Positions 1-41,540 of a DNA stretch of 64,000 nt are shown here, one piece after another (position 1 is the stretch's first letter; the number at the start of each line of letters is the position of its first letter). The notes under the pieces were generated by a model, which was not told the origin of the DNA, searched no databases, and saw nothing but the letters and a program-made list of their open reading frames with translations. The translations under genes and the position numbers were made by a program. The DNA comes from Elusimicrobiota bacterium (GTDB taxonomy: Bacteria; Elusimicrobiota; Elusimicrobia; UBA1565; UBA9628): assembly GCA_026388095.1 (NCBI GenBank), contig JAPLKL010000018.1, forward strand, positions 38,388 to 102,387, in the 5' to 3' direction.

Positions 1-3147
<3,147 letters not shown>

Positions 3148-3151
<4 letters not shown>

Positions 3152-7900: not shown

Positions 7901-8367
7901 GCCGGCAGGTCGCAGGCGCGCAGGAGGTCGTTGATCATGCCCTGCAGGCCGAGTTGGCGGCCGTCGTCCGGGGAGTAGATGCGGGCCACGCCGTAGTCGT
8001 GCAGGGCCTCCATCTCCCTGGGCAGGATCACCCCGCCCCCGCCGCCGAAAACCTTGATGTGGCCGCAGCCGCGCTCGCGCAGCAGATCGAGCATGAACTT
8101 GAAGAACTCCATGTGGCCGCCCTGGTAGGAGGTCACGGCCACGGCCGCCGCGTCTTCCTGGACCGCGCAGTCCGCCACCTCGCGCGCGGAGCGGTTGTGG
8201 CCGAGGTGGATGACCTCCGCGCCGGTGGCCTGGAGTATGCGGCGCATGATGTTGATGGCCGCGTCGTGCCCGTCGAAGAGCGCGGTGGCGGTCACCACGC
8301 GGATGCGGCGCCGGGTCCGGCAAGGCTCGGTCTCGGGCCTAGGCGCGACCGCTGTCTTTGTCGTCAT
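4993..8367 (-). CDS. icmF: fused isobutyryl-CoA mutase (B12-binding domain + MeaB-like GTPase + mutase catalytic domain)
   Basis: N-terminal B12 domain ([19 protein letters not shown]). G domain ([25 protein letters not shown]). C-terminal mutase domain ([39 protein letters not shown]). The ATG at 8367 overlaps the stop of the upstream gene. Confidence 0.9.
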
Positions 8368-16961: not shown

Positions 16962-19187
16962 TCATGCCGCCTGAGCGGCGGGCGCGTCGACGGGCGCGTA
17001 CTCGCGCGCGGCCTCCCGGCCGTAGAGCACGCGCAGCGCGCCCTTGGCCAGGGCCGCCATCTCGTTCTCCCCGGGATAGACGGTGACGCCGCAGCCCAGG
17101 CCGCGCAGGTAGCCCGTGACGCGCTCCACGAGCAGCCCGGAGCGGGCCATGCCCCCGGTCAGGATGACGCGGTCCAGCTTCTGCCCGTCGAAAGCGGGGA
17201 CCAAAGCGGCCGCGGCCTTGGCGATCTGATAGGCCATGGCGTCCAAGACCTCCGCTGCCTCCGCGTCCCCGGCCAGTATGCGCCTCTCGACCTCGCGCAG
17301 GTCCGCAGTGCCCAGCAGATCGATGAGTCCGCCCGCGCCCTTGATGAGCTTGCGGACTTCCGCGAAGGTGTAGCGTCCCGAGAAGAACAGCTCCGCGAAT
17401 TGCGCCTGCGGCAGGGAGCCGCAGCGCTCCGGGCTGAAGGGGCCCTCGCCGTCGAGGCCGTTGTTGGCGTCGATGTAGCGGCCCTGGAAATGGGCTCCGA
17501 TGGAGATGCCTCCGCCCAGGTGGCAGACGACCACGTTGATGCGCTCGTAGAAGGTCTCGTTCTCCTGCGCGTAGCGCCGTGCCGAGGCGATCTGGTTGAG
17601 GGCGTGGCTGATCACCTTGCGCCTGATGGCCTTGATGCCGGTGATCTTCACCCGCGCGGGCGTCTCGTCGACCACCACGGGGTCCACGATGAAGGCCGGC
17701 TTGCCGCCCAAAGCGGCGAGCTCGTGCGCGATTAGCCCGCCCAGGTTCGAGGCGTGGTCCCCATAGGTGCCGGCGCGCAGGTCGGCCAGCACGGCCTCGC
17801 CCACCCGGTAGGTGCCGTGCGGGATGGGGCGCAGCAGGCCGCCGCGGCCGCAGAAGGCGTCTATGTCGCCGGGGCCGAGCTTGGCGTCCCGCAGGGCGCG
17901 CAGCACGGCCTCCTTGCGCATGGCGTACTGCTCGGTGATCTTGCGGCCGACGAAGGGGGCCAGTTCCGACTGGGTGTGCTGCAGCTCCCGGCTGGAGGTC
18001 TCCACATCTCCTTCATAGACGGCGATCTTGGTCGAGGTCGAGCCCGGGTTGATGGCCAGGACGCGGTGGCGGCGGAAGAAAGTATCCTTGGGGGTCCGGG
18101 CCCAGCGGCCGTAGCGGTGCAGGCGCAGCACCGAGGCCTTGACCGCCAAGCGCACGTCCTCCGGGCTGCAGTCGATGGCCAGGTCCACGCCCCGGAAACC
18201 GACGCCGAAGATGACCTGGAACTTCTTGGCCGTGGGGTACCGTGAGGAATAGAGGTCGTAGAGGAGGTTGCCGGTCTCCAGGTTGGGGCAGATGATCACG
18301 TTCGTGCCGCCCGTGAGGCCCGCCTCCCCATAGAGCTCGGCGGAGCGCCGCGAGATGGCCGCGCTGATCTTCACCTCGCCCGCGATGCGGATGCCGGCGT
18401 AGCGCCGCCCGATGCGCGCGCGCTCGGCCAGCAGGCCCGGCACCAAGGCCATGGCCTGGCGGATCATGACCGGGGAAGGGCCTTCGTCCGAGCCCCGGTG
18501 CGAATAGGACACCACGGCCCCGTGGATCTCGGGCAGCACGTCCTCGGGGATGAGGTCGCGCGCCACGGCGCAGATGCCCACGGCCACGTCGGCGAGCTTC
18601 TCCGGGGTCATGGTGGCGTTGACGCCCACGTCCCCGAAGACCACGATGTTGTGGGGGTAGTAGCCCTCGGGATGCTCGTCGGGAAGGACGAACACGCCCG
18701 CCTCGCAGACCACCTTCCTTTTAGAGAGGACCTCGAGCATGGGGCGGAAGAAATCCTTGGCGCCGTGCCGGGCTCCGCCCACCACCATATCGGCGTGCCC
18801 CCGGTGCACGGCGTAGACGCCGAAGAGCCCCGGCTCCGAGACCGAGCGCTTGGCGGCGGCCAGGTCCGCCGCTTGGCTGCCGCAGCGCCGGTTCTTGAGG
18901 CAGTCGTCCGCGAACTCCGAAACCAACGCAGGGTTCCGGGAGATGTCCACGAAGGAGGACGCCGACAAGGCGAACTCCACTCGGGTGGACTCCAGGTGGG
19001 CCAGGGACTGCGCCGCCGCGGCGCGCACCGATTCCTCCGAGGCCAGGAGCACCGGCTTGATGAACCGCGCCAGATAGCAGACGGCCTCGAGCACGCGCGG
19101 GTCGTCCGGCTCGGTGAACACGACGGTGGGGCGGTCCTTCTGGAGAGAGAGGATGTGCGTGTCGAACGACTCCTCTATCCTGAACAT
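16962..19187 (-). CDS. fused phosphate butyryl/acetyltransferase (N) - butyrate kinase (C)
   Basis: 741-aa C-terminal part of track ORF 16962..20237, from MFRIEESFDTHIL. The N half resembles the PTA/PTB family. The C half begins RVLAINPGSTSTKIAVYEG and contains CHLGGGISIGAH and ILTGGMA, typical of butyrate/acetate kinases. The upstream 350 aa of the ORF is antisense to the dehydrogenase at 19230. Confidence 0.8.
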   Translation of the reverse strand: MFRIEESFDTHILSLQKDRPTVVFTEPDDPRVLEAVCYLARFIKPVLLASEESVRAAAAQSLAHLESTRVEFALSASSFVDISRNPALVSEFADDCLKNRRCGSQAADLAAAKRSVSEPGLFGVYAVHRGHADMVVGGARHGAKDFFRPMLEVLSKRKVVCEAGVFVLPDEHPEGYYPHNIVVFGDVGVNATMTPEKLADVAVGICAVARDLIPEDVLPEIHGAVVSYSHRGSDEGPSPVMIRQAMALVPGLLAERARIGRRYAGIRIAGEVKISAAISRRSAELYGEAGLTGGTNVIICPNLETGNLLYDLYSSRYPTAKKFQVIFGVGFRGVDLAIDCSPEDVRLAVKASVLRLHRYGRWARTPKDTFFRRHRVLAINPGSTSTKIAVYEGDVETSSRELQHTQSELAPFVGRKITEQYAMRKEAVLRALRDAKLGPGDIDAFCGRGGLLRPIPHGTYRVGEAVLADLRAGTYGDHASNLGGLIAHELAALGGKPAFIVDPVVVDETPARVKITGIKAIRRKVISHALNQIASARRYAQENETFYERINVVVCHLGGGISIGAHFQGRYIDANNGLDGEGPFSPERCGSLPQAQFAELFFSGRYTFAEVRKLIKGAGGLIDLLGTADLREVERRILAGDAEAAEVLDAMAYQIAKAAAALVPAFDGQKLDRVILTGGMARSGLLVERVTGYLRGLGCGVTVYPGENEMAALAKGALRVLYGREAAREYAPVDAPAAQAA

Positions 19188-26646: not shown

Positions 26647-28205
26647 ATCCAGGCCCCCGAGGGGGCCTGGATTCGGCTATAATACCAAAACGCCGCCGGA
26701 GTGAGCGTCCGGATCGGGTGGGATTCTTCAGGTTGACGGCGTGGAGGCAGAGCCGTGGCTACGCGGAGTGGAAATCATCCGCCGGAGGAACGTCGACTGC
26801 TTCGTATAAGTCACTTCGCGGGTCGAGCTGACACTCCTCCCCCGGCGGCCCGCACATAGCCTCGACTAATTTAGTCCGCGCGGGCATCGTCTTCGGGAAT
26901 TCCGTCGGAAGGCCAAGGTGCTCCAACAGCCGGACCAACTCCTGGTCGTTCATGATGACCGCCACAGGCACCATGGTCGCGGCGCAGCGCGGGCAGACCA
27001 ACGGGTCAACCTCGAAGACCCGGTTCAGGCAGGCGGCCCAGGAACGTACGCTCTTGCTGACCGCTTCCTTGGCCCCCTCCACTTTCTTTCGCAGACGAGC
27101 CTTGGCCGTGCCCCGGCTCGCCTCGGCCACCAGCGACGCCCGCAGCGGCGAGTTCGGCCCCAAAGCCCCGTAGTAGCGCAGAAGATTCCTGCGCGCCGGC
27201 GGGATCAGCAGACCCCAGCGCCTAAGGAATTCCACCGGCTCGAACCGCAAAGCCAAGGTCAGACCATTCTTAGGCTCGGTGCGGTAGACGACCCGGTCAT
27301 TCTTCGGCTGATACGACAACCGCTTAGGCGCGAGCGCCGGCTTGGCGCAATAGAAAAGGACGCGCTCCAGCCCCTCACGATCCCCGCCCGGCACGAACAC
27401 CTTGGCGTGCAGGGAGAAACCCGAGTTCTGCCAGGACAGCATCTCTTTAGCCATATCATCGGGGATGGCGCCCAGCCTGCGCAAGCGCCTGAGAATCTTG
27501 TGGCGCAAAGACTCGGTCATAAGCTCGATGTCCCGCTCTGACGGCTCGGCAGCGGCGTGGAACCTGAGCTTCGAGCCCAACAAGCCCGGCTCAAAGCTGA
27601 AGCGCCCCTCCGAGACCACCGCGTGCACATGCGGATGCAGATTCAGCGAACGGCCCGCGCGCTGGATGAAGTGAAGCTGGGCCGCGGCCGTGCCCGCGCA
27701 TCTCCTGCGCAGGAGACGCTCTATCTCACGGGCCAGGATGCGGCTTATCTCGCCCGGCAAAGCGGCGCTCTGGTTGACGTACCACCTCAGCCGCTTGGGA
27801 ATGGTCAAGACATATTGCCGATAGCCCACCGCGGGCAGAAGCCGGTCCGATGCGTCGGCCATGATGATCGCCGCGCGCTTGGCGTCGCAGTGCGGGCAGA
27901 AGCCCCGGCGCTTGCAGGAGAAAGCGACGAACAGGTCCTCCCCGCACTGCGGGCACCGGAAGCGCATTACGCCGAAGCGCGCGATGCCGCACTCCAAGTA
28001 CTTCTGCAAGTGCTGGAGAACGCCCACAGGCGGCCGATGACGAAGATCCTGAGGCCGCCGCAGGGCCAGCGCGAAGTCCTCGATATGGTCGAGCACCAGC
28101 CTATGCAGCGGCCCCCTGGCCGTGTCTCGCGACCGGTAGGACCCAGCCCCCGTTGCCCCCACCTACAATATACGAACGAGGGCCCGATTTGTTCCCTGGC
28201 CAGGG
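26647..28205 (-). mobile_element. IS91-family (rolling-circle, HUH) insertion sequence; boundaries approximate
   Basis: A single transposase gene. A 12-bp-stem hairpin lies about 90 bp beyond its 3' end (26647-26672). The palindrome CCCTGGCCAGGG, preceded by GTTC, lies just upstream of its 5' end (28191-28205). True ends were not determined. Confidence 0.4.
26759..28162 (-). CDS. IS91-family transposase
   Basis: N-terminal zinc-binding domain (YLECGIARFGVMRFRCPQCGEDLFVAFSCKRRGFCPHC). HUH-type motif LNLHPHVHAVVSEG. C-terminal RYYGAL and CPRC. Confidence 0.85.
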   Translation of the reverse strand: MGATGAGSYRSRDTARGPLHRLVLDHIEDFALALRRPQDLRHRPPVGVLQHLQKYLECGIARFGVMRFRCPQCGEDLFVAFSCKRRGFCPHCDAKRAAIIMADASDRLLPAVGYRQYVLTIPKRLRWYVNQSAALPGEISRILAREIERLLRRRCAGTAAAQLHFIQRAGRSLNLHPHVHAVVSEGRFSFEPGLLGSKLRFHAAAEPSERDIELMTESLRHKILRRLRRLGAIPDDMAKEMLSWQNSGFSLHAKVFVPGGDREGLERVLFYCAKPALAPKRLSYQPKNDRVVYRTEPKNGLTLALRFEPVEFLRRWGLLIPPARRNLLRYYGALGPNSPLRASLVAEASRGTAKARLRKKVEGAKEAVSKSVRSWAACLNRVFEVDPLVCPRCAATMVPVAVIMNDQELVRLLEHLGLPTEFPKTMPARTKLVEAMCGPPGEECQLDPRSDLYEAVDVPPADDFHSA

Positions 28206-28273
28206 CCACCAGCCGCCGCAGGGCACTTTACGAATCACTTTACTTATACTTTACTTATTGGTATGATATCTTC

Positions 28274-29278
28274 GTGCCCTTCACCCCCACCTTCCAGGCC
28301 ACTCCCCATCTCCTCAAGGTCTTGGAGGAGATCGCCTCCCTCAACGCCCGCATCCAGAGCGCGGCCATAGGCGTAAGCTGGATACCCAACCTCCAGAGAG
28401 AAGCCGCCGCCCGGCAGACCCACGGCTCCACGGCCATCGAAGGCAATCCCTTGACCCTGCCCGAGGTCCAAATCATCGCCAGCGGCGGCGATCTGCCCCA
28501 GGCCAAACCCCGCGCCATCCAGGAGGTCCTAAACTACCTGGCCGCCCTGCGCTTCATCGAAAAGAACGCCAAAGCCAATAAAATCGAGACCACGGACGTG
28601 CTCAAATTGCACTCGATCATGGGACAAAGGGGCGCTCTGGACCGCGAACCGATCGGCCTCTTCAGACCCTACCAGGTCAAGGTCGGCATGCACATGCCCC
28701 CCACCCCGAAGGGTGTGCCCCGCCTCATGACCGAACTGCTGGAATGGCTCAACGGCCCTGGCCGCGCTTGGCCGGCGGTCGTGAGCTCGGCCATCCTCCA
28801 TTACCAATTCGAGTTCATCCACCCCTTCGGCGACGGCAACGGCAGAGTCGGCCGAGCTTTGGCCACCTGGGAACTCTACCGCAAGCAGTTCGACACCCAC
28901 CACATCTTTGCCGTCGATGAGGTCCTCCTGGAAGACCGGCAGAGCTACTACCGCGCCCTGCATCGTGTTCAGAGCGAGGGCCAGGAATTATCCGGCTGGG
29001 TGGAATACATCGCCGAAGCCATCAACGAAGCGCTGGAGCGAACATGGAAGCGCATCCAGGCCGTCAGTGCCGCTGCCAAAGACAAGGCCCTGACGCTGAC
29101 GCCCAAACAGGAACGGCTCATCACACTGCTGCGCATTGAGCCGCTCGGCATCCAGGCGATCCAGGAGGCGCTCAAGGTCACCAAGCCAGGGGCGCATTTC
29201 ATCATCAAGCCTCTGTTGGCGGCGGGCCTGATCAAGCGTGTAGGCGGGCATAAGACCGGAAAATACGTCTTGGCCTGA
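28274..29278 (+). CDS. Fic-family protein (AMPylase type) with N-terminal inhibitory motif and C-terminal wHTH-like tail
   Basis: Fic motif HPFGDGNGRVGRAL. Inhibitory-helix-like STAIEGN near the N terminus. The start is assigned to the GTG at 28274, the only in-frame start that does not overlap the transposase gene. Confidence 0.75.
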   Translation: MPFTPTFQATPHLLKVLEEIASLNARIQSAAIGVSWIPNLQREAAARQTHGSTAIEGNPLTLPEVQIIASGGDLPQAKPRAIQEVLNYLAALRFIEKNAKANKIETTDVLKLHSIMGQRGALDREPIGLFRPYQVKVGMHMPPTPKGVPRLMTELLEWLNGPGRAWPAVVSSAILHYQFEFIHPFGDGNGRVGRALATWELYRKQFDTHHIFAVDEVLLEDRQSYYRALHRVQSEGQELSGWVEYIAEAINEALERTWKRIQAVSAAAKDKALTLTPKQERLITLLRIEPLGIQAIQEALKVTKPGAHFIIKPLLAAGLIKRVGGHKTGKYVLA

Positions 29279-29301: not shown

Positions 29302-30288
29302 TTAGGGCGCGATCTTGAGCACGACCTTGCCCATGGGCCCGGCGGCCAGACGGGCGAAGGCCTCGGGAAGGCGCTCGAACTCCCACTCGGAATCGACCAG
29401 CGGCGCGGCGCCGGTCTTCTTCAGCAGCTTCAGCACCGAGTCCCAGGCCGCGTGGGCTTCCCGTCCCTGATAGGCCGCCACATTCACCCCGCCGATGCGC
29501 AGCTTCCTGAAGAAGAGGCTGGCCGTATTGAACGAGGGCACGGGCCCGGCCAGCCGGCCCACGCAGGACACCTTGCCGCCGGCGCCCAAAGTCTCCAGCA
29601 CCTGGTTGAACGACTCGCCGCCGATGGTGTCCACGGCCAGATCCACCTTGCCGCCCTTGAGGAACTCCTTGACGCGCTTCGGCCACTGCGGGTCGTTGGG
29701 ATCCACGACCGACTGCGCCCCCTGCTGGCGGAGCTTCTCGGCCTTGCCCGCGTCGCGCGACATGGCGAGCACCGTATGCCCCATGGCCCGGGCCAAGTGC
29801 ACCGCGGCCACCCCCACCCCTCCGGAGGCGCCGGTGACAAGCACCGTCGACGGTGGCAACTCACCCCACATGGTCAGGGCCTGATAAGCGGTGAGATAGA
29901 CCAGCGGAGCCGCGGCGCTCTGCTGGGGACTCCAGCCGGGAGTCGGCGCGGCCAGGCAGTCCGCCGGCACCGCCGCGTACTGCGCGAACAGGCCTGGGCG
30001 GTTGACCCCCGCCTCGCCGCGCAGGATCACGCGGCGCGCTCCGCTGGCCAGGCCCTGCACGCCGGGACCCACGGCGACCACGGTCCCCAGGCCGTCGCGG
30101 CCCAGGATATGGGGCAAGACCGGGCGGGCCGGATAGAGCGCTTCGGCCAGGTAGCGGTCCGCCGGATTGAGGGAAGCGAACTCCACGCGCAGGAGCACTT
30201 CGCCTTCGCCGGGCCTGGGCTCGGCGGTCTCCCCGAGCCGGAGGTTCTGGAGCGAGCCTATCTTGTCGAGCAGCCAGGCGCGCATCAT
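29302..30288 (-). CDS. zinc-type alcohol dehydrogenase / NADPH:quinone oxidoreductase family (MDR)
   Basis: LNPADRYL, TAYQAL, and the Rossmann motif VLVTGASGGVGVAAVHLA. Confidence 0.8.
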   Translation of the reverse strand: MMRAWLLDKIGSLQNLRLGETAEPRPGEGEVLLRVEFASLNPADRYLAEALYPARPVLPHILGRDGLGTVVAVGPGVQGLASGARRVILRGEAGVNRPGLFAQYAAVPADCLAAPTPGWSPQQSAAAPLVYLTAYQALTMWGELPPSTVLVTGASGGVGVAAVHLARAMGHTVLAMSRDAGKAEKLRQQGAQSVVDPNDPQWPKRVKEFLKGGKVDLAVDTIGGESFNQVLETLGAGGKVSCVGRLAGPVPSFNTASLFFRKLRIGGVNVAAYQGREAHAAWDSVLKLLKKTGAAPLVDSEWEFERLPEAFARLAAGPMGKVVLKIAP

Positions 30289-30352: not shown

Positions 30353-31912
30353 TCAAGACCTGACCCCCTCATGCCTGACCCCCTCATGCGGGCGCATCCA
30401 GATGGGCCTCAGATAAGGCTCCGGACGGCGCAGGCCCTTGGCCCGCTCCAATGCGGCCAGCAATATCCTGCGCATCCGGGGCGGGCTCAAGGCCCGGCCC
30501 GCCGGCGCTCCCAGCCTGCCGCGGATGAAAGCGGTCACATCTTCCGAGACCGCGGAAAAATCAACGGCCAGGCCCGCCTCGTCGCCGAGCGCATGCCGCG
30601 CCAAAGCCCGGTTGCAGAGAGCCCAATCATTGGCCTGGCCGTGCCGGAGGCAGTCCGTCAGCTCCGCCGCGGCCTCGGCGTGACGGCCCATGAGCCTGTA
30701 GGCCTCGCCCCTCCACACGCGGGACTCGATGTCCCGGGGATCCGCCGCGATGGCGGAGTCGAGGTCGGCCAAGGCTCCGCGGCAGTCCCCCAGCTTCAAG
30801 CGCGCGGCGCCGCGCCAGCCGCGAGCCCAGGAGAGGGCTCCGGACGCGACAGCCTCGTCGAGCTTGGCCAAAGCCTCGCGGTACCGCCCCAGCCACAGGA
30901 GCGCCTCGCCGTGCCACGCCATGACCTCGGCCTTGGCCAAGACGTCGGCGGCGCGCCGCGCGCGCTCGAACTCGCGCAGCGCGCCGGCCGCCTCGCCCCG
31001 GGCCAGCCTGGCCTCCGCCAGCCGGCAGCGCAGCCCCCAGTCCTCGGGCAGCAGCCGCAAGAGGCGGCGGCAGGCCCCGATGACCCAGCCGTAGTCTCCC
31101 CTGGACAGGCGGTAGGTCACGAAAGGATGATGCCGATAGACCTCGCGCGGGCTGCGGGCAGGCCCGATGCGCCGGTACTCGGCCATCACCTCCCTCAGCG
31201 TCCCGATCCGCGCCAGGAGGCTGCCGCGGCAATAGGCGTACCAGGCTCGGGACGTCTTATCCCCGCCGGCCCTGCGCAGACGCTTGAGCTCCGAGGCGCA
31301 GAAGCCCCTCAGGCCCGCCGGATCCCAAGGGCCGACCCTCTGCCACCACGGCCACTGAAAGGCGTTGGGGTTGGCCACCGTCACGGATCTCCGGAGCATG
31401 GCTTCCGCCAGCCGGAAGGCCGCGGGATAGCGGCGCGCGCACAACAGCGCCGAAAAGACCTCCGGCCACGCCTGCGCCGCGCCGCTGGGCTGCCGGGCGG
31501 CGGCCGCCTCGACGGTCTTGCGGGCCTGCGTGAGCCGGCCGGAACGGATCAGGATCCGAGCCAGCTCGTTGGGCGGCCAAGGCGATGCCGGATCGGCCAG
31601 CGCGGCCCCGCGGAAGGCCCTCTGCGCCGCGCCGCCGCGCCCGAGCCTCTCGCGCACCCGCCCCAAGGCCATGAGGCCCTCATACGACGACGCTCCCAGC
31701 CGCAGAGCGCGCAGCAGGTGCTCCTGGGCCGGCCGCAGCCGGCCGCGGCCCTCGAGGAACCTGGAGAAATCCAATTCCAGGGCTCCGGAGGCCGGGTTGG
31801 CGAGCAGAGCCCTGCGATAGGACCGCTCCGCATCCTGCGGGCGCCCCGCCTTCTCCGCGCTCCGGCCTTGGCGGAGGTCGGCCTCCCACGAGGACAGCCC
31901 AGCTCTCGCCAC
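30353..31912 (-). CDS. tetratricopeptide-repeat protein
   Basis: Repeated A-x-x-x-Y/F-x-x-A-L helical pairs throughout. GTG start 10 nt after the DUF35 gene stop, so probably co-transcribed with it. Confidence 0.6.
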   Translation of the reverse strand: MARAGLSSWEADLRQGRSAEKAGRPQDAERSYRRALLANPASGALELDFSRFLEGRGRLRPAQEHLLRALRLGASSYEGLMALGRVRERLGRGGAAQRAFRGAALADPASPWPPNELARILIRSGRLTQARKTVEAAAARQPSGAAQAWPEVFSALLCARRYPAAFRLAEAMLRRSVTVANPNAFQWPWWQRVGPWDPAGLRGFCASELKRLRRAGGDKTSRAWYAYCRGSLLARIGTLREVMAEYRRIGPARSPREVYRHHPFVTYRLSRGDYGWVIGACRRLLRLLPEDWGLRCRLAEARLARGEAAGALREFERARRAADVLAKAEVMAWHGEALLWLGRYREALAKLDEAVASGALSWARGWRGAARLKLGDCRGALADLDSAIAADPRDIESRVWRGEAYRLMGRHAEAAAELTDCLRHGQANDWALCNRALARHALGDEAGLAVDFSAVSEDVTAFIRGRLGAPAGRALSPPRMRRILLAALERAKGLRRPEPYLRPIWMRPHEGVRHEGVRS

Positions 31913-31922
31913 GGGAGCGCGG

Positions 31923-32312
31923 CTAGGCGGGGACGGCCTTGTAGCCGTAGCAGATCACCCCGGCGTGGCCCACGTCGTGGATCTTGCGGAACTCCAGGCG
32001 CAGGGGCATGCCGCTCTTGAGCTCCTCGGGCTCCACGTCCACGATCTGGACCGTGAGCCGGACCTTGTTGGAGAGCTCCACGATGCCCAGGCCGTAGGGC
32101 GCGAGCTTGGCGAAGCGCTCCGGCGCGGTGTGCACCACGGTATAGGTGAGCAGCTTGCCGTCCGTGGGCAGGCGCAGCTTGGCGAAGGCCTCCCCCCCGC
32201 AGTCCGGGCACTTGAGCCTGGGCGGGAAGAATATCTTCTTGCACTTGCGGCACTGCCCGGCTTCCAGCCGGTAGCGCTGGGGGATCTCGCGCCAGACTCT
32301 CTGCGGTTGCAT
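31923..32312 (-). CDS. DUF35 Zn-ribbon/OB-fold protein (scaffold of archaeal-type thiolase/HMG-CoA synthase complex)
   Basis: CRKCKKIFFPPRLKCPDCGG zinc ribbon followed by an OB-fold-like segment. Sits directly after the thiolase gene. Confidence 0.85.
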   Translation of the reverse strand: MQPQRVWREIPQRYRLEAGQCRKCKKIFFPPRLKCPDCGGEAFAKLRLPTDGKLLTYTVVHTAPERFAKLAPYGLGIVELSNKVRLTVQIVDVEPEELKSGMPLRLEFRKIHDVGHAGVICYGYKAVPA

Positions 32313-32313
32313 T

Positions 32314-33477
32314 CTATTTCCCCTCCCGGCCGAGTATGCTGACCACCGACGAGCCGCAGGTCCCGCCCATGTTCTGGGCCAGGCCGACGCGCGCCTTGGA
32401 GAGCTGCCTCTCCCCGGCCGCGCCGCGCAGTTGCTCCACGAGCTCCACGATCTGAGCCACGCCGGTCGCCCCGACCGGGTGCCCCTTGGACTTCAGGCCT
32501 CCGGAGGTGTTGATGGGCTTGGAGCCCTTCAGGGCCGTGTGGCCCTGCTCCGTGAACTTCCCGCCCTGCCCCGGCTTGCAGAAGCCCAAAGCCTCTATGG
32601 CGCAGATCTCGGCGATGGTGAAGCAGTCGTGCACCTCGGCGAAATCGATGTCCTTGGGCGACTTGCCCGCCATCTTGTAGGCGCGCTGAGCGGCCAGCTC
32701 GGCGGCTTCCAGGCGGGTGATGTCCTCGCGCTGGGCCAAGGCCATGGCGTCCGCGGCCTGACCCACGCCCAGGACCTTCGCCAACGGCCCCTTCTTGAGC
32801 TTGGCCGCCAGCTCCACGGGCGCCAGCACCACGGCCGCGGCCCCATCCGTGATGGGCGAGCAGTCCAGCAGGCACAGAGGCTCGGCCACCTTGACCGAGT
32901 TCATGACGTCCTGCACGCTCACCTTCATCTTGAACTGGGCGTTGGGGTTGAGCAGGCCGTTGTCATGGTTCTTGGCCGCGACCATCGCCAACTGCTCGCG
33001 GGTGGTCCCGTACTTGTCCATGTGCGCGCGCGCCATCAAGGCGTAGAGGGCCGGGAAGGTGGCGCCCTGATACGCCTCGTAGTCGAAGTCCGCGGCCGTG
33101 GACAGGGCGAAGGTGGCTCCGTCGCCGGAGAGGTCAGTCATCTTCTCCACGCCGCCGACCAAAACGAAGTCGCTGGCGCCGGAAGCGACCTCCAGGACCC
33201 CCTGGCGGAAGGCGACTCCGCCCGAGGCGCAGGCCGACTCCACCCGGGTCGCGGGCACGCCTTTAAGGCCGGTATAGTCCGCGACCAAGGCGCCCACATG
33301 CTCCTGGCTGTTGAAGAGGCCGCCGCTCATGCAGCCCACCAGCAGAGAGTCGATGCGGGGCGCCCCGGAATCCTTGATGGCCTTCAGGGCGGCTTGCGCG
33401 AAAAGGTCGCGCAAGGAAGAGCGCCACAGCTCTCCCCAGGGCGACAGGCCGACGCCTATGACCGCTACTGGTCTCAT
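32314..33477 (-). CDS. acetoacetyl-CoA thiolase, archaeal/SCP-x-like type
   Basis: [16 protein letters not shown]...[16 protein letters not shown]...HDCFTIAEI...[14 protein letters not shown]. Start at the ATG at 33477, preceded by GGAGGAG. Confidence 0.85.
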
Positions 33478-33490
33478 CTTAGTGCTCCTC

Positions 33491-33566
33491 CGGATTCGGG
33501 GACACAATACTTAATTCCGTCCCGGCGTAAGTGCGCATATGAATTAAGTATTGTGTCCCTCAATTC
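33491..33566. repeat. 76-bp MITE-like hairpin element flanked by a 10-bp direct duplication
   Basis: Perfect 19-bp inverted repeat GGGACACAATACTTAATTC (33499-33517) / GAATTAAGTATTGTGTCCC (33541-33559), extendable with one mismatch to the element ends. Flanked by AGTGCTCCTC at 33481-33490 and 33567-33576. Confidence 0.55.
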
Positions 33567-34632
33567 AGTGCTCCTCGCTCATGCGGATCTTGCCGCGCAG
33601 CTTGGCGTAGGTGCCGTACTCCAGGTACTTGCGCCGGGGGCTCAGAAGCATGTCCCAGGTCTTCTTGGCCTTGTCCTGCACCTTGGGCAATGCCGCGGTG
33701 GCCTTGAACACGAAGCCGTCGCTGCCCGCGCCCGAGCCGTAGGAGATCATCAGCACGAGGTCTCCGGGCTTGGCCACGTCGAGGACCGCGGTCATGCCCA
33801 GCGGCGAGGCTCCGGAATAGGTGTTGCCGAGCTTGGGCACCAGGCAGCCGGTCTCGATCTGCTCTTTGGAGAAGCCCGTCACCTTGCCGGCGCGGTAAGG
33901 GAACTTGCCGTTGGGCTGATGGAAGACCACGTAGCGGAAATCCTTGGGCTTCAAGCTGGCCTTCTCCATGATCTCGTTGGTGCAGGAGACCACGTGCCGG
34001 AAATAGGCTTCCTCGCCCGTAAAGCGCCCCCCGTGCTTGGGGTAGAACATGTGCTCGCGCCGCCAGAAATCCGGCGTGTCGGTCATGTAGGCGTGGGTCT
34101 CAAGGAGTTCCGCAACCAGGGCTTCCCGGCCGAAGATGAAGGCCGCGGCGCCCGCAGCCGCGGAGTACTCCAGGGCGTCTCCGGGCGCGCCCTGGGAGGT
34201 GTCGGCGCCCACGCCCATGGCGTAGCGGCAGGCGCCGGAGCGCACCAGCTGGGAGGCGATGAACATGCCCTCCGAGCCGGCCTTGCAGGCGAACTCCAGG
34301 TCCGCGGTGTGGCAGTGCGGCACCGCGCCCAAGGCCTCGGCCAATATGGTCCCGGTGGGCTTGACCGCGTAGGGGTGCGACTCGCTGCCCACGTAGATGG
34401 CGCCGATGTCCTGGGGGTCCACGGGCGCCCTCTGCAGGGCCCGGCGCGCCGCTTCCACGGACATGGTGGCCGTGTCCTGGTCCGAGGAGGGCACGGATTT
34501 CTCCTCGAGCATGAGGCCGCGCTTGTAGGCGGCCGCGTCCGCGCCCCAGACTTTCGCGATCTCTTCGGCCTTGATGCGGTTGCGCGGGATGTCCGCGCCC
34601 CAGCCGACTATGCCGACCTTCACTTCTGCCAT
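33565..34632 (-). CDS. hydroxymethylglutaryl-CoA synthase, archaeal type
   Basis: MAEVKVGIVGWGADIPRNRI...ADLEFACKAGSEGM...VVFHQPNGKFP...GNTYSGASPLGM. Confidence 0.9.
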   Translation of the reverse strand: MAEVKVGIVGWGADIPRNRIKAEEIAKVWGADAAAYKRGLMLEEKSVPSSDQDTATMSVEAARRALQRAPVDPQDIGAIYVGSESHPYAVKPTGTILAEALGAVPHCHTADLEFACKAGSEGMFIASQLVRSGACRYAMGVGADTSQGAPGDALEYSAAAGAAAFIFGREALVAELLETHAYMTDTPDFWRREHMFYPKHGGRFTGEEAYFRHVVSCTNEIMEKASLKPKDFRYVVFHQPNGKFPYRAGKVTGFSKEQIETGCLVPKLGNTYSGASPLGMTAVLDVAKPGDLVLMISYGSGAGSDGFVFKATAALPKVQDKAKKTWDMLLSPRRKYLEYGTYAKLRGKIRMSEEH

Positions 34633-34660
34633 GGAGCCTCCGGAAGGGCCTAATTACATT

Positions 34661-35163
34661 CTACTTCTTAAAAGCGATGAGGCACTGCCCCACCTCGATC
34701 TGCTTGCCCTCCACGGCCAGGACTTGCTCAACGGTGCCGGGGCGCGGGGCCTTGAACTCGAACTCGATCTTCATGGAATCGATGATGACCACGGGCTGGC
34801 CCTTCTTGACCTCGTCGCCCGGCTTGACCAGGACCTTGACCACGCGGCCGGGCAAGGGCGAGTTCATGACGGGCTCGTCGGCCTCGCCGTGGTCCCCGTC
34901 GGCCACGGAATGGGCCGCGTCCTCCTCCCGTAGATGGAAGCTCTCGCCGTCGATCTGCAGGAAGACTTCCTTGTCCCGGCGCGCCCAATCCACCACCAGC
35001 TGGCGGCCGGGCAGGCGCAGGAGGAAGCGGTTGCCGCCCAAAGAGACGGTGGAGACCTCCACCTCTGGCTGGCCTTCCAGGCGCACCAGGAAGCGCTGCC
35101 CTTCCTTGCGCACCGTGTAGGTCTGGCGCAGGGACTCGCCGGCGCGGAAGAATCGGTGCTCCA

Positions 35164-35164
<1 letters not shown>
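34661..35164 (-). CDS. biotin carboxyl-carrier protein (stand-alone C-terminal part of a methylcrotonyl-CoA carboxylase alpha chain)
   Basis: Biotinyl-lysine context VVIIDSMKIEFEFKAP. The start MEHRFF at 35164 shares 1 nt with the biotin carboxylase stop. Confidence 0.7.
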
Positions 35165-36643
<1,479 letters not shown>

Positions 36644-36657
<14 letters not shown>

Positions 36658-37429
36658 AGGGCTTCTTCTCCAAGAAAGAATGCATCCCCTTCTGCGCCTC
36701 GGCTCCGGCGCGCAGCTTGGCGATGACCTCCACTGCGTACTCCAGGGCGGCGTCGAGGCTTTGCCCGGGCACCCGCTCCAGGAGCTCTTTGACCACGGCC
36801 TGGGCGCCGGGCGCGGCCTCGGCCAGGCTGGCGGCGATGCGCTTGGCGCGGGGGATGAGCCCCTCGGGAGAGACGACCTCGTCGACCAGGCCGAGCTGGA
36901 GGGCCGCGGCCGCGTCGAAGCGCTCGCCCGAGAGCATGTAGCGGCGCAGGGCCCCAGCGGGAGCCCGGCGCAGGAGGAAGGGGGAGATGCAGGCCGGCAC
37001 CAGGCCCAGGCGCACCTCGCTGAGGCTGAAGACCGCGACGGTGGAGGCGACTGCGATGTCGCAGGCGCCCAGGAAGCCCATGCCTCCGCCTATGGCCGCG
37101 CCGTTGACCGCGGCGATGGTGGGCTTCTTCATCGAGTAGAGGGCCTTGAAGGCGTCGGCTATGGCCTGGGAGTCGCGCCGGTTCTCCGGAAGGGTATAGT
37201 CCACCACCTCCCGCATCCAGGCCAGGTCCGCGCCGGCGCAGAAGGACTTGCCCCGGCCGCTGAGCACGAGCACGCGCACCGAGCGGTCCTGGTCGATCTC
37301 CGTGAAGGCCCGGGCCAGCTCTTTGAGCAGATGGGAGTCGAAGGAATTGCGCTTCTCCGGCCGGGCCAGCCACAAGAGCATGGTCGTGCCTTCGCGCTCG
37401 AGCTCGAGGGTGCTGTAGCGGGTCGTCAT
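36644..37429 (-). CDS. methylglutaconyl-CoA hydratase (enoyl-CoA hydratase family)
   Basis: C-terminal 261 aa of track ORF 36644..37765, from [30 protein letters not shown]. Contains GRGKSFCAGADLAWM and GGGMGFLGACD. Lies between the carboxyltransferase and the biotin carboxylase. Confidence 0.85.
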
Positions 37430-39060
37430 CACATCCTGTAGAGGCTGGGCGCGAAGTCCGGTATGGGGGCGTTGAGAGACATCGCGATGGAGAGGCCCAA
37501 GGCGGTGCGGGTGTCCGCGGGGTCGAGTATCCCGTCGTCCCAGAGCCGGGCCGTGCTGTAGAGGGAGTGGCCCTCGCGCTCGTATTTCTCCAGGATGGGG
37601 CGCTTGAACTCGTCCTGCTGCTCCTGGGACATGGGCTTGCCGGCTTTCTCCTGCTGGGCGGCCTTGACCGTGCACAGGACGTTGGCCGCCTGCTCTCCAC
37701 CCATGACCGAGATGCGCGCCATGGGCCACATCCACAAGAGGCGGGGGTCGTAGGCCCGGCCGCACATGCCGTAGTTGCCGGCCCCGTAGGAGCCGCCCAT
37801 GATGATGGTGAACTTGGGCACGTTGGCGTTGGAGACCGCGGTCACCATCTTGGCACCGTCCTTGGCGATGCCGCCGCGCTCGTAGCTCTTGCCCACCATG
37901 TAGCCGGTGATGTTCTGGAAGAAGAGCAGGGGGATCTTGCGGAAGCAGCAGAGCTCGATGAAGTGAGTGGCCTTGAGCGCGCTCTCCGAGAAGAGGATGC
38001 CGTTGTTGGCGAGTATGCCCACGGGATAGCCCATGATGCGGGCCATGCCGCAGACCAAGGTGGTCCCGTAGAGCTTCTTGAACTCGTGGAAGCGGGAGCC
38101 GTCTACGATGCGGGCGATGATCTCGCGCATGTCGAACTGCTTGCGGATGTCCTTGGGGATGACGCCGTAGAGTTCCTCGGGAGCGTAGGCGGGCTCTTCA
38201 GGCGCGCAGGCGCCGATGTCGGCCCGGGGCCGGTTGCCGAGGTTCTCGACGGCGTTGCGCGCCATGCGCAAGGCCGCGGCCTCGTCGTTGGCGTAGTGGT
38301 CGGAGACTCCGGAGATCTTGCAGTGCACGTCCGCGCCGCCCAGGTCCTCGGCGGAGACGTCCTCGCCCGTGGCGGCTTTGACCAGCGGGGGTCCGGCCAG
38401 GAAGATGGTGGCCTGCTTGCGCACCATGATGGTCTCGTCGCTCATGGCCGGGATGTAGGCGCCGCCAGCCGTGCAGGAGCCGAGCACCACGGAGATCTGG
38501 GGGATGTTCTTGGCCGAGAGCTGGGCCTGGTTGAAGAAGATGCGGCCGAAGTGGTCGCGGTCCGGGAAGACTTGGTCCTGGAGCGGCAGGAAGGCGCCGC
38601 CGGAGTCCACGAGATAGACGCAGGGCAGGTTGTTCTCCAGGGCGATGTCCTGGGCGCGCAGGTGCTTTTTGACGGTGATGGGGTAGTAGGTGCCGCCCTT
38701 GACCGTGGCGTCGTTGGCGATGACCATGACGTGGCGGCCGTTGACCACGCCGATGCCGGTGACGAGGCCGGCGGCGGGCGGAGAGTCCGGGCCGTAGACT
38801 TCGCGGGCGGCCAGGCCGGAGAGCTCCAAGAAGGGGGTGTCGGGGTCGAGGAGGACTTCCAGGCGCTCGCGGACCAGGAGCTTCTTGCGGGACTTGTGGA
38901 GCTCGCGCGTGGCCTGGGGCCCGCCGAGCTTGGCCTCTTCGGAGAGGGCGCGGAACTTCTCGACCACGCCGCGGTTGTGCTCGACGTTCTCCTTGAATTG
39001 GGCGCTGGAGGTGTCTATCTGGGAGGTGAGTTTATCCATGGGACTGGCTGATTCTACCAA
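37429..39060 (-). CDS. methylcrotonyl-CoA carboxylase beta chain (carboxyltransferase)
   Basis: [19 protein letters not shown]...[14 protein letters not shown]...[10 protein letters not shown]...[16 protein letters not shown]. The TTG at 39060 has a GGGGGA Shine-Dalgarno about 4 nt upstream. Alternative ATG at 39039. Confidence 0.9.
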
Positions 39061-39277
39061 ACTTTCCCCCTTTTGCAGGCCCCGGTTCTTTGCTGTTACG
39101 CGGTTCCGACGCGAAGCGTCGGAACCCGCCCGGATGCGCGCAGCGCATCTGGGCCATTCCTCGGCTGGTCACTTCCGTTTCTTAGGAAAGCGCCGCGGAC
39201 AAGCTCAGGCCGTCTGTCGAGAGCGGGGAGAAGTGCTAGGCCGTCCGGCCAGGCGGCATTCCATAAATAGAAGATGC

Positions 39278-39305
39278 CTTGACATTGCCGTTATGACTGT
39301 TATAA
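39278..39305 (+). promoter_or_regulatory. near-consensus sigma-70 promoter of the phd/doc module
   Basis: TTGACA (39278-39283), 16-nt spacer, TATAAT (39300-39305). GGAGG lies 5 nt before the ATG at 39331. The half-sites TTATGACTG and TAATGACAG overlap the -10. Confidence 0.55.
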
Positions 39306-39330
39306 TGACAGTGTACTAACGGAGGCAGCC

Positions 39331-39558
39331 ATGGTTAAATTCCTCACCAGAGTCGGCAACAGCGAAGCACTCGTCATAGACAAGGCGATACTCTCCCTTC
39401 TTCACATATCCGAGACCACGCCCCTGGAGATCACGACAGACGGCAAAAATTTGGTCATCTCTCCGATTTCAGAACCCGGCCAGGTCAAAGAGGCGGTGAA
39501 GGCCTATCGTGCCGTGAAAAAGCGGTTCGGCCGCGCGCTGAAGCGGCTGGCGGACTAA
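39331..39558 (+). CDS. AbrB/SpoVT-fold antitoxin (Phd-like partner of Doc)
   Basis: 75 aa. VKFLTRVGNSEALVIDKAILSLL is a swapped-hairpin AbrB-like N terminus. The stop abuts the doc ATG. Confidence 0.8.
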   Translation: MVKFLTRVGNSEALVIDKAILSLLHISETTPLEITTDGKNLVISPISEPGQVKEAVKAYRAVKKRFGRALKRLAD

Positions 39559-39960
39559 ATGTCGCCGCGATTCCTCTCTCTCGCGGAAGTCCTCGAGTTC
39601 CACGAGGACTTGGTCCGCTCCTTCGGAGGGAAACCCGGCATCCGAGACCTGGCACTGTTGGAGTCCGCAGTGGCCATGCCGCAAAGCGGATCAGGGAAGG
39701 AGTACTTTCATGAGTTCCCTTTCGGAATGGCGGCGGCCTATGCATACCACATAGCCCAGAATCATGCATTCGTCGACGGGAACAAGAGGGCCGCTCTGGC
39801 AACCGCGCTGGTCTTCTTGGAGATCAATGGATATCCCGTACTGGGCGGCGAAGATGAGTTGGAGGCAGCCACCCGAAAAGTCGCCTCGGGGAAGATGGAC
39901 AAGGACGGCTTTGCAGGCATGCTTGAGAAGACCTACAGACGCTATAAGGGCGGAGCCTGA
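39559..39960 (+). CDS. doc: Doc (death-on-curing) toxin, Fic/Doc family
   Basis: Doc motif HAFVDGNKRAAL. 133 aa. Confidence 0.85.
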   Translation: MSPRFLSLAEVLEFHEDLVRSFGGKPGIRDLALLESAVAMPQSGSGKEYFHEFPFGMAAAYAYHIAQNHAFVDGNKRAALATALVFLEINGYPVLGGEDELEAATRKVASGKMDKDGFAGMLEKTYRRYKGGA

Positions 39961-40246
39961 GTTGCAGGGCATGCCCAACATTCGCATGAGCCGCCCGCTC
40001 AAGCGGTCGGCCCATGCGCCCGGCGGCGGCTCAGCGTTTCGTTCGACAGCTCTAGCATAACGGCCAGGTCGAGGATGCCCCTATTCGACATCGCTTGGAC
40101 GCCAAGTCGCCCAGCAGGGACAAAAGACTTGAAGTCCCGCATGAGAACCTCGAGTCAGGGCGTCCGGCGCCAGCCACAGCCTGTGTCCTAAAAACGGAGA
40201 GTGGCCGCCCACCCAATGGCCCAGACTCGCTGCGCTCGTCTGGGCG

Positions 40247-40271
40247 GGTCCTGCGCTAACGGCGCAGGACC
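40247..40271 (-). terminator. GC-rich hairpin 16 nt after the dehydrogenase stop; candidate terminator without an adjacent U-tract
   Basis: GGTCCTGCGC (40247-40256) / GCGCAGGACC (40262-40271), 5-nt loop. Confidence 0.3.
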
Positions 40272-40286
40272 TCGGGACGGCAACGG

Positions 40287-41447
40287 CTACTCGTAGCAGC
40301 CGATGGCGCGGGCGATGACCAGGCGCTGGATCTCCGAGGTCCCCTCGCCCACCTCGAGCAGCTTCTGGTCGCGGAAGAACCGCTCGATCTGGAACTCGCC
40401 CATGAAGCCGTAGCCCCCGAAGAGCTGCAGGCCGTGCGTCACGCACAGCCGCGCCACCTCGGCGCAGTTCAGCTTGGCCATGGCCGACTCCCGGGCGTAA
40501 GGCCGGCCCTGGTCCTTGAGCCAGCAAGCCTGGTACAGGTAGAGCCGGGCGTGCTCGATCTGCGTGGCCATGTCCGCCAGCTTGAAGGCGTTGGCCTGGA
40601 AGGTCGAGATCGCCGCGCCGAACTGCTTGCGCTGCTTGGCGTAGGCCAAAGCCAGCTCGAAGGCGCCCTGCGCGCAGCCCAGGCCCATGGCCGCGATGGA
40701 AAGCCTCCCCGCGTCCAAAGTCCCCAGCATCTGCTTGAAGCCCTCGCCCTGCTTGCCCAGCACCTGCGCGTCGGGAAGCTTCACCTTGTCGAAGTACAGC
40801 TCGCCCGTGTCCGAGGCGCGCCAGAGCAGCTTGTCGTGCATCTGCTTGGTGGTGTAGCCCGGCGTGCCCTTCTCGAGCAGGAAGCAGGTGTACTCCTTCT
40901 TGCCGTCCGCCCGCTTGCCGCTGACCGCCTGCACCGTCGCGCCCAAGGAGCAGTCCACGGTGGCGTTGGTGATGAAGACCTTGGCGCCGCTGAGCTGCCA
41001 GCCCCCGTCCACCTTCGTGGCCTTGGTCTGGGTCCCCCCCGCGTCGGAGCCCGCCTCCGGCTCGGTCAGGGCGAAGGCCCAGACATGGTCTCCCGAGCAC
41101 AGCCTGGGCAGGTACTTCTCCTTCTGCTCCGCATTGCCGAAATCGTGGATGGGCCCCACGCCCAAAGAGTTGTGCGCCGCCAAGGTCGCGGCCTGCGAGC
41201 CGTCCACCCGGGCCATCTCCTCCACCGCGATGATGTAGGAGACGTAGTCCATTCCCTGGCCGCCGTACTCCGGCTCGATCTGCATGCCGAAGAGGCCCAT
41301 CTCCCCCATGCGCTTGGTCAACTGTGCGGAGAACTCCTCCTTGCGGTCCAGGTCGTGGGCCGCCGGCCGGACCTCCTTTTCCGCGAAGGCGCGCACCGTG
41401 TCGCGGATCATCTTATGGTCTTCGGTCAGATCGAATGATAGTGGCAT
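40287..41447 (-). CDS. acyl-CoA dehydrogenase (isovaleryl-CoA dehydrogenase candidate by context)
   Basis: C-terminal 386 aa of track ORF 40287..43007, from MPLSFDLTEDHKMIRDTVRAFAEKEV. Contains ALTEPEAGSDAGG and FGGYGFMGEFQIERFFRDQKLLEVGEGTSEIQRLVIA. Confidence 0.9.
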   Translation of the reverse strand: MPLSFDLTEDHKMIRDTVRAFAEKEVRPAAHDLDRKEEFSAQLTKRMGEMGLFGMQIEPEYGGQGMDYVSYIIAVEEMARVDGSQAATLAAHNSLGVGPIHDFGNAEQKEKYLPRLCSGDHVWAFALTEPEAGSDAGGTQTKATKVDGGWQLSGAKVFITNATVDCSLGATVQAVSGKRADGKKEYTCFLLEKGTPGYTTKQMHDKLLWRASDTGELYFDKVKLPDAQVLGKQGEGFKQMLGTLDAGRLSIAAMGLGCAQGAFELALAYAKQRKQFGAAISTFQANAFKLADMATQIEHARLYLYQACWLKDQGRPYARESAMAKLNCAEVARLCVTHGLQLFGGYGFMGEFQIERFFRDQKLLEVGEGTSEIQRLVIARAIGCYE

Positions 41448-41540
41448 GGACCAAGGATATGAAATGGGCCGGAACCAAGTCAAAAAGAGCGAAGTTCCGG
41501 CCCGCAGGATTTGACATTGATTTGAGTATCGGCGATTACA

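Follow-up and report, generated by a model that had tools for sequence, protein, structure and literature searches.

A leucine-degradation operon carrying an archaeal-type HMG-CoA synthase trio in an Elusimicrobiota genome: a possible HMG-CoA hub

Organization of the operon

The 64,000-nt stretch of contig JAPLKL010000018.1 analyzed here (the window; coordinates are window positions unless a contig is named) belongs to an Elusimicrobiota genome (assembly GCA_026388095.1, designated G000; 97.6% complete), in which the contig is labeled C57. Its minus strand carries an operon that joins the genes of a 3-methylcrotonyl-CoA carboxylase (MCC) and a presumed 3-methylglutaconyl-CoA hydratase to a trio composed of an SCP-x-type thiolase, an archaeal-type HMG-CoA (3-hydroxy-3-methylglutaryl coenzyme A) synthase (HMGCS), and a DUF35 protein. 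A preliminary reading of the DNA (the original prediction) had listed the genes in the order carboxyltransferase, hydratase, biotin carboxylase, carrier protein, HMGCS, thiolase, DUF35, and TPR, and all eight were found where it had placed them. Families were assigned with Pfam and NCBIfam profiles against curated cut-offs, together with sequence matches to the Protein Data Bank (PDB). For comparison purposes, we used 41 genomes of the order to which the window belongs, and 80 loci from more than ten phyla with an HMGCS 62-72% identical to that of the window. The window DNA was also present in freshwater and lake metagenomes.

The first gene of the operon encodes the carboxyltransferase (37429-39060; Carboxyl_trans, 502 bits). 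Its product matched the MCC beta subunit of P. aeruginosa over its full length (3u9r_B, 778 bits) and human MCCB with 752 bits, compared with 459 bits for the beta subunit of geranyl-CoA carboxylase (GCC) and at most 283 bits for the beta subunit of propionyl-CoA carboxylase (PCC); judged by these matches, it is a true MCC beta orthologue. The stop codon of this gene is overlapped by the start (GTG/ATG) of a gene encoding a crotonase-family hydratase of 262 aa (36644-37432; ECH_1, 183 bits), presumed to be the 3-methylglutaconyl-CoA hydratase. The hydratase remained below all equivalog cut-offs, its best NCBIfam family being the AtuE-like NF004227 (234 bits, cut-off 426), and scored 104 bits against LiuC (5jbx) and 173 bits against its best PDB match; in other phyla, the corresponding position is taken by a crotonase of 260-288 aa. 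The MCC alpha subunit is divided between two genes overlapping by 31 nt, one encoding an ATP-grasp biotin carboxylase (BC) of 497 aa (35164-36657; Biotin_carb_N, CPSase_L_D2, and Biotin_carb_C) and the other a BT-biotin carboxyl carrier protein (BT-BCCP) of 177 aa (34661-35194; Biotin_lipoyl, 63.5 bits; BT_MCC_alpha, 27.6 bits, below the cut-off of 31). The same split was observed in all seven trio-linked loci checked from other phyla (L011, L013, L017, L020, L026, L049, and L057), with a BC open reading frame (ORF) of 498-529 aa, a BT-BCCP ORF of about 180 aa, and usually an overlap of about 31 nt.

The trio follows directly. The HMGCS gene (33565-34632) passed the cut-offs of the archaeal-type families TIGR00748 (501 bits, cut-off 353) and NF003274 (515 bits, cut-off 244) and scored 117 bits against the bacterial MvaS-type TIGR01835, whose cut-off is 360. 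Its product matched the Methanothermococcus thermolithotrophicus enzyme (6esq_I) over the full length with 438 bits, and the SESHPY, EFACKAG, and FHQPNGKF motifs, which we take to hold the catalytic Glu, Cys, and His residues, are identical. It is the sole HMG-CoA synthase of the genome, as tblastn otherwise returned only a FabH-like paralogue of 22% identity; an exact-protein look-up of this HMGCS found no record. The next gene encodes an SCP-x-type acetoacetyl-CoA thiolase (32314-33507; NF004720, 523 bits, cut-off 420), with translation likely starting at residue 11, near 33477. It reached 517 bits against the M. thermolithotrophicus equivalog NF053570, below the cut-off of 600, and its leading PDB matches were 7yvy_A (384 bits) and 6esq_A (359 bits). 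The third member is a DUF35 scaffold protein with a zinc ribbon and an OB fold (31923-32312; zf-ChsH2 and OB_ChsH2_C, both over cut-off), which matched 6esq_E with 101 bits and retains the four-cysteine CxxC...CxxC pattern. The curated HMGCS cut-offs and the matches to the 6ESQ chains confirm the archaeal-type identity that had been claimed for the trio; by analogy with the archaeal proteins, the three products may form a channelling complex.

A gene encoding a TPR protein (30353-31912; TPR Pfam families) lies 10 nt downstream of the DUF35 gene and is probably co-transcribed with the trio. Because the genes are separated by only -31 to +87 nt, the segment from MCC beta through TPR forms one transcription unit as far as spacing shows. 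Further downstream on the same strand is a quinone-oxidoreductase-like gene of the medium-chain dehydrogenase/reductase (MDR) family (29302-30288; ADH_zinc_N and ADH_N; PIG3 family, 150 bits, below the cut-off of 297). Neither a TPR homologue nor the MDR gene was found beside the trio in the 80 related loci, and genome G038 of the order has a caspase-domain gene in the place of TPR. Both genes were considered as members of the module and were rejected for lack of conservation next to the trio in other loci. Four metatranscriptome runs (one wetland, three lake) searched with the segment 29300-41500 yielded short contigs only, mostly from conserved BC and carboxyltransferase genes of other organisms, and were uninformative on expression and co-transcription.

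HMG-CoA lyase and mevalonate genes of the genome

No HMGL-like domain was found within the 64-kb window, and the statement of the original prediction that no HMG-CoA lyase is visible there is literally true. The prediction had gone further, placing the trio in the pathway instead of a lyase and proposing a whole-genome search for one. This search located a canonical HMG-CoA lyase of 304 aa (C57:36585-37499, minus strand; NF004283, 304 bits, cut-off 246) about 0.9 kb before the first base of the window. It shares contig and strand with the DUF35 gene, from which it lies 32.8 kb downstream. It is the only HMGL-like-domain gene in the genome. The lyase belongs to a minus-strand operon composed of genes encoding a PCC-beta-like carboxyltransferase (1586-3514), a methylmalonyl-CoA mutase (3-1589, running off the window; NCBIfam mutase C-terminal domain in L001), a methylmalonyl-CoA epimerase (TIGR03081, 148 bits, in L001), and the lyase itself (the last two at C57:36585-38000), the first two being placed by a tblastn paralogue map; the four genes overlap by 4 to 37 nt. 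A lyase encoded elsewhere is half of what the original prediction had itself named as counting against it. The idea of a substitute for a missing lyase is therefore untenable in this genome, and the reverse run of the trio is not needed here because an intact lyase is present.

Contig C62 carries a complete eight-gene archaeal-type lower mevalonate operon (L008:2983-10524, minus strand) in the order IDI2-HMGR-MK-UbiX-UbiD-AcnX large-AcnX small-IPK. The genes encode a type 2 isopentenyl diphosphate isomerase, a class II HMG-CoA reductase, a mevalonate kinase, a UbiX-like flavoprotein, a UbiD-like decarboxylase, both AcnX subunits, and an amino-acid-kinase-family protein presumed to be isopentenyl phosphate kinase. 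In gene content, the operon corresponds to the archaeal trans-anhydromevalonate phosphate route. No HMG-CoA synthase gene was found in the operon, and the trio is not physically placed with the mevalonate genes; being the sole HMGCS of the genome, the one in the window is the only possible synthase for this operon. The methylerythritol phosphate (MEP) pathway genes Dxs, DXR, IspG, and IspH are also present. The order of the mevalonate operon is conserved in the relatives G005, G006, G009, and G036, with sequence identity that tracks kinship. A review names only Chloroflexota among bacteria with an archaeal-type mevalonate pathway (PMC13001223), and the present operon extends the AcnX/UbiD-type pathway to Elusimicrobiota.

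Comparison within the order

HMG-CoA reductase was found in 10 of the 41 genomes of the order, and a true HMGCS only in G000, G009, G036 (two copies), and G038, all of which have the reductase. The trio thus occurs in 4 of the 10 reductase-bearing genomes and in none of the 31 reductase-less ones. The lyase and MCC beta were each detected in 33 of the 41 genomes; the lyase was absent in G009, G036, and G038. The canonical arrangement MCC beta-hydratase-lyase was found in 13 relatives. Genome G038 has the arrangement of the window, namely carboxyltransferase (CT), crotonase (ECH), BC, BCCP, and trio, and G005, a member of the same genus with a genome 99% complete, has CT-ECH-BC-BCCP followed by a fused phosphotransbutyrylase-butyrate kinase (Ptb-Buk) and the lyase, with no HMGCS of any type. 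In these related operons, trio and lyase alternate after the MCC genes. The lyase of G005 is 89% identical to that of the window genome, and its Ptb-Buk (L128:12539-14752) is 76.5% identical to the one in the window, a single minus-strand ORF of about 730 aa (16995-19187). Compared with G005, the window has a 15.5-kb trio-containing block between BCCP and Ptb-Buk, followed by 17.9 kb to the lyase.

The two trio copies of G036 differ in their surroundings. One (L121:7553-10158) is situated near MCC beta and hydratase genes and has an HMGCS 76% identical to that of the window, and the other (L122:9997-12573; 53%) stands alone among housekeeping genes. In this genome the reductase is present, and the lyase, Dxs, and IspG were not found. 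A further group of relatives, G005, G006, G026, and G029 (L126, L127), carries the mevalonate operon and MCC with no HMGCS of any type.

In phylogenetic trees, the MCC beta of the window grouped with those of G001, G005, G006, and G038, and its HMGCS with those of G036, G038, and G009. Both proteins thus group with genes of the same order, which makes the cluster a native one in this lineage; members of the order without the trio have probably lost it. The terminal branch of the window HMGCS measured 0.45, compared with a median of 0.16, and the third-position GC of the trio equals that of the neighboring genes. A recent foreign (inter-phylum) origin of the trio was considered and rejected: the trio-containing block is flanked by Fic genes and an IS91-family transposase, but neither third-position GC nor the trees supported such an origin. 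The transposase (Y2_Tnp and zinc-binding domain) and a large Fic-domain protein are encoded at 26759-29278, directly downstream of the trio-TPR-MDR block.

Comparison across phyla

An MCC-type carboxyltransferase gene was situated beside the trio in 42 of the 80 loci, belonging to more than ten phyla, with flanks adequate to judge the linkage in 60 loci only; this and the following counts are to be read as patterns and not as statistics, because most of the metagenome-assembled genomes (MAGs) may be incomplete and related genomes do not count as independent cases. The order trio-then-MCC was present in 39 loci and the order of the window in two, with a crotonase gene in 38 and a BC gene in 35. 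No mevalonate gene or lyase was found within 10 kb. Gene content was searched in the 40 genomes underlying these loci, 30 of which have the trio-MCC linkage. A lyase over cut-off was present in two of the 40, both among the linked 30; a reductase was present in 11, ten of them linked; and each genome had a single HMGCS. Both enzymes were missing from the complete chromosomes of G041 (CP070742.1) and G045 (CP070825.1). Since the linkage recurs in so many loci of many phyla, the arrangement is not due to chance. The original prediction had tied the trio functionally to the leucine module, and this part is supported by the conserved linkage and by the fact that most holders elsewhere have neither lyase nor reductase. 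Judging from gene content, the wider pattern favors a mevalonate-independent role for this type of cluster, probably cleavage. Full-text literature searches returned no published description of the trio-MCC linkage or of HMGCS reversal in leucine catabolism.

Six of the MAGs (G042, G043, G057, G062, G063, and G070; L112 and L114-L118), several of them labeled Zixibacteria or Ignavibacteria, had their HMG-CoA reductase matches within open frames of 773-822 aa, which suggests a fusion with another domain.

Catabolic setting

Regarding the direction of MCC, the window genome has no LeuA (no HMGL-like domain besides the lyase, and no LeuA_dimer), and the ketol-acid reductoisomerase IlvC was not found in it; both families were present in all 14 control genomes. 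Lacking both enzymes, the organism must import branched-chain amino acids, and by its gene content it appears to be a branched-chain amino acid auxotroph. G036, G038, and G045, with no HMGL-like domain and no reductoisomerase found either, likewise appear to be auxotrophs. The absence of LeuA and IlvC makes MCC probably catabolic. The rest of the window encodes an IcmF-like mutase, the alpha and beta subunits of the electron-transferring flavoprotein (ETF), a CCG iron-sulfur oxidoreductase, a thiolase, a hydroxyacyl-CoA dehydrogenase, additional acyl-CoA dehydrogenases (ACADs), and the fused Ptb-Buk. These genes make up a supercluster for the catabolism of branched-chain acyl-CoAs, a setting in which MCC would naturally run in the catabolic direction.

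Proposed role and alternative explanations

Taken together, we propose with a probability of roughly 0.5 that, in this organism, the operon serves as an HMG-CoA hub and not as a lyase-free pathway. Imported leucine carbon would pass from isovaleryl-CoA to 3-methylcrotonyl-CoA and, through MCC and the hydratase, to HMG-CoA, while the trio would tie the same HMG-CoA pool to acetyl-CoA. Further outlets would be the canonical lyase 32.8 kb downstream and the HMG-CoA reductase of the C62 mevalonate operon. We take the forward direction to be the more secure job of the trio in this genome, because the trio includes the only HMG-CoA synthase, and consider it likely that it forms HMG-CoA from acetyl-CoA for mevalonate when leucine carbon is short. 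This role also fits a vertically inherited mevalonate operon, the restriction of the trio to reductase-bearing genomes within the order, and the availability of a lyase for catabolism. We see somewhat less than an even chance that, with the operon induced for the breakdown of leucine, the trio also carries net flux in reverse (HMG-CoA + 2 CoA to 3 acetyl-CoA). The two directions are not mutually exclusive, the forward one being the safer claim here.

Several observations weigh against the hub reading and its forward emphasis. Within the order, the lyase is missing in three of the four trio holders compared with two of the 29 MCC-bearing non-holders, and G036 maintains a second, stand-alone trio. 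Across phyla, 18 of the 30 linked genomes have neither reductase nor lyase, and DXR is present in 37 of the 40 trio-holding genomes. Here and in more than ten phyla, the trio is co-transcribed with the catabolic MCC and not with mevalonate genes, and running it forward while MCC and the lyase are active would create a ketogenic futile cycle. Additionally, six relatives, including G005 (99% complete), G026 (97%), and G006 (93%), keep the mevalonate operon without any HMGCS, indicating that mevalonate formation in this lineage is not strictly dependent on the trio. A synthase-less mevalonate operon can apparently live on leucine-derived HMG-CoA. In G006, no HMGCS, Dxs, or IspG was found despite its 93% completeness, and its isoprenoids may thus depend on this source.

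These points lead to the explanation closest to the original prediction, in which the trio mainly serves, while leucine or isovalerate is degraded, to convert HMG-CoA and two CoA into three acetyl-CoA. A thioester that is lost as free acetoacetate on the lyase route would thereby be saved, a gain of about one extra ATP per leucine, with the lyase as a parallel outlet. The gene order mirrors the catabolic reaction order, and the trio shares its transcript with an ATP-dependent MCC. The linkage recurs across phyla in which most holders, including the complete chromosomes of G041 and G045, have neither of the known HMG-CoA consumers; either the trio (G038) or a lyase (after Ptb-Buk in G005, after CT-ECH in the 13 relatives) comes after the MCC genes; and auxotrophy for branched-chain amino acids implies that leucine flux is catabolic. 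Thermodynamically, acetoacetyl-CoA thiolysis is favorable by roughly 25 kJ/mol and could pull an unfavorable HMGCS reversal, so that the summed reaction may be near equilibrium, and citrate synthase, which some anaerobes run in reverse, offers an in vivo precedent among hydrolytic Claisen enzymes. Against it, we know of no HMGCS shown to run backwards physiologically, the window genome has an intact lyase, and the mevalonate operon is found in each of the four genomes of the order that carry the trio. In one third of the holders across phyla, a reductase is combined with a single HMGCS, which requires the trio to run forward in those genomes at the least. We therefore consider cleavage unlikely to be the main job, although it is the strongest of the competing explanations. 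The anabolic counterpart is the weakest reading offered by the original prediction and, in our view, improbable. In this myxobacterial-like route, acetyl-CoA would be converted through HMG-CoA, 3-methylglutaconyl-CoA, and 3-methylcrotonyl-CoA to isovaleryl-CoA for iso-branched lipids or, by reductive carboxylation, for leucine. Genomes without lyase and reductase require some through route, a second way to leucine would be useful given the absence of LeuA, an MDR-family reductase gene is situated two genes downstream of the trio, and a CoA-transferase pair, the only one in the genome, is encoded on contig C49. The carboxylase nevertheless retains its ATP-grasp BC subunit, in keeping with carboxylation rather than decarboxylation; the HMGCS is of the archaeal and not the MvaS type; and the MDR and TPR genes are not conserved with the cluster. 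The C49 pair is nearer to the glutaconate CoA-transferase GctA (129 bits) than to AibA (74 bits) and is unlinked, and was for these reasons rejected as an AibA/B-type decarboxylase. With IlvC also absent, imported leucine supplies isovaleryl-CoA anyway.

A last alternative, for which we see very little chance, is that the linkage is a historical leftover, or that the trio acts on other acyl-CoAs in the manner of PhlACB, with no role for HMG-CoA in the operon. Repurposed bacterial HMGS/ACAT/DUF35 complexes do exist, and a 2026 paper deals with bacterial trios solely as repurposed acylases (PMC12960953). The long terminal branch of the window HMGCS would agree with such a change of function. The protein nonetheless exceeds the curated equivalog cut-offs and retains the archaeal motifs, PhlA scoring only 186 bits, and the fact that phyla share the cluster order, at 62-76% identity, speaks for selection.

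A more tentative reading concerns this cluster type as a whole. Possibly, its trio reverses in vivo and, with no lyase involved, cleaves HMG-CoA derived from leucine to three acetyl-CoA while conserving a thioester, as a widespread and undescribed ending of leucine and isovalerate degradation in anaerobic, mostly uncultured phyla. In the present Elusimicrobiota lineage it would operate alongside the lyase or alternate with it, within a hub that also feeds mevalonate from leucine. Should the complex prove reversible in vivo, this would be a second natural case, after reversed citrate synthase, of a supposedly one-way condensing enzyme acting in cleavage, and models of leucine and isovalerate turnover and ATP yield would change for many uncultured sediment and freshwater phyla. 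The window genome is a useful exception in having trio, lyase, and reductase together, and its close relatives with differing subsets, such as G038 (trio without lyase) and G005 (lyase without trio), provide a natural comparison set for the direction of the reaction.

Neighboring genes and other features of the window

Upstream of the operon lies a minus-strand ACAD gene (40287-41447; all three ACAD Pfam domains) presumed to encode the isovaleryl-CoA dehydrogenase step. Its PDB matches were 338 bits for butyryl/short-chain dehydrogenases (Bcd/SCAD) versus 258 bits for isovaleryl-CoA dehydrogenase (IVD). In G005 and G006, which belong to the same genus, orthologues (87-90% identity) lie in synteny with the MCC operon. 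A terminator-like hairpin follows the ACAD gene at 40199-40214, and promoter-like sites were identified at 41435-41483; going by these signals, ACAD is a transcription unit separate from the MCC-trio operon. The space between them is occupied by a plus-strand toxin-antitoxin cassette (39279-39960) composed of a promoter with a sigma-70 consensus (12/12 positions with TG; TTGACA-16-TATAAT), an AbrB/MazE-like antitoxin ORF of 75 aa (39331-39558), and, abutting it, a Doc/Fic toxin gene (39559-39960; Fic/DOC Pfam, 54.9 bits). In G005, an MFS transporter gene and two unknown genes are located in place of the cassette. The upstream position described for ACAD was thus correct, but it is not contiguous with the operon, as the hairpin and the cassette intervene.

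Elsewhere on the minus strand (4993-10268), the gene encoding an IcmF-like fused B12 mutase/MeaB GTPase adjoins that of the CCG-domain iron-sulfur oxidoreductase and an ACAD-ETF set. This gene set is that of ETF-to-quinone electron transfer in syntrophic fatty-acid oxidizers.

Comparison with known systems

The closest known counterpart of the trio is the M. thermolithotrophicus thiolase/HMGCS/DUF35 complex (PDB 6ESQ/6ET9). All three chains were matched over their whole length by products of adjacent genes, the 6ESQ chains ranking first among PDB matches for HMGCS and DUF35 and second for the thiolase, and the motifs of HMGCS are retained together with all four cysteines of the zinc ribbon. 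In contrast to that system, the host is bacterial, the trio is transcribed with MCC and the hydratase instead of mevalonate genes, and complex formation is predicted by homology. With the liuRABCDE cluster of Pseudomonas, the window shares an MCC beta orthologue, a crotonase hydratase, BC and BCCP, and a nearby ACAD. It differs in that MCC alpha consists of two overlapping ORFs and not of one BC-BT-BCCP polypeptide, and no LiuR-type regulator was seen. Unlike liuRABCDE and the CT-ECH-lyase operons of the relatives, the operon has no lyase gene, and the trio follows BCCP where G005 has Ptb-Buk and the lyase. The alternative isovaleryl-CoA pathway of Myxococcus xanthus (MvaS, LiuC, AibA/B, and AibC) similarly connects the metabolism of branched C5 acyl-CoAs with an HMG-CoA synthase and a LiuC-like hydratase; the window, in contrast, has an archaeal-type synthase complex, a biotin carboxylase instead of AibA/B, and no linked AibA/B. 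Finally, when compared to the archaeal mevalonate pathway, the C62 operon belongs to an Elusimicrobiota host, is devoid of a synthase gene, and coexists with MEP genes, but it shares with the archaeal trans-anhydromevalonate phosphate pathway the mevalonate kinase, AcnX subunits, UbiD-like and UbiX-like proteins, isopentenyl phosphate kinase, IDI2, and class II HMG-CoA reductase, all encoded in one operon.

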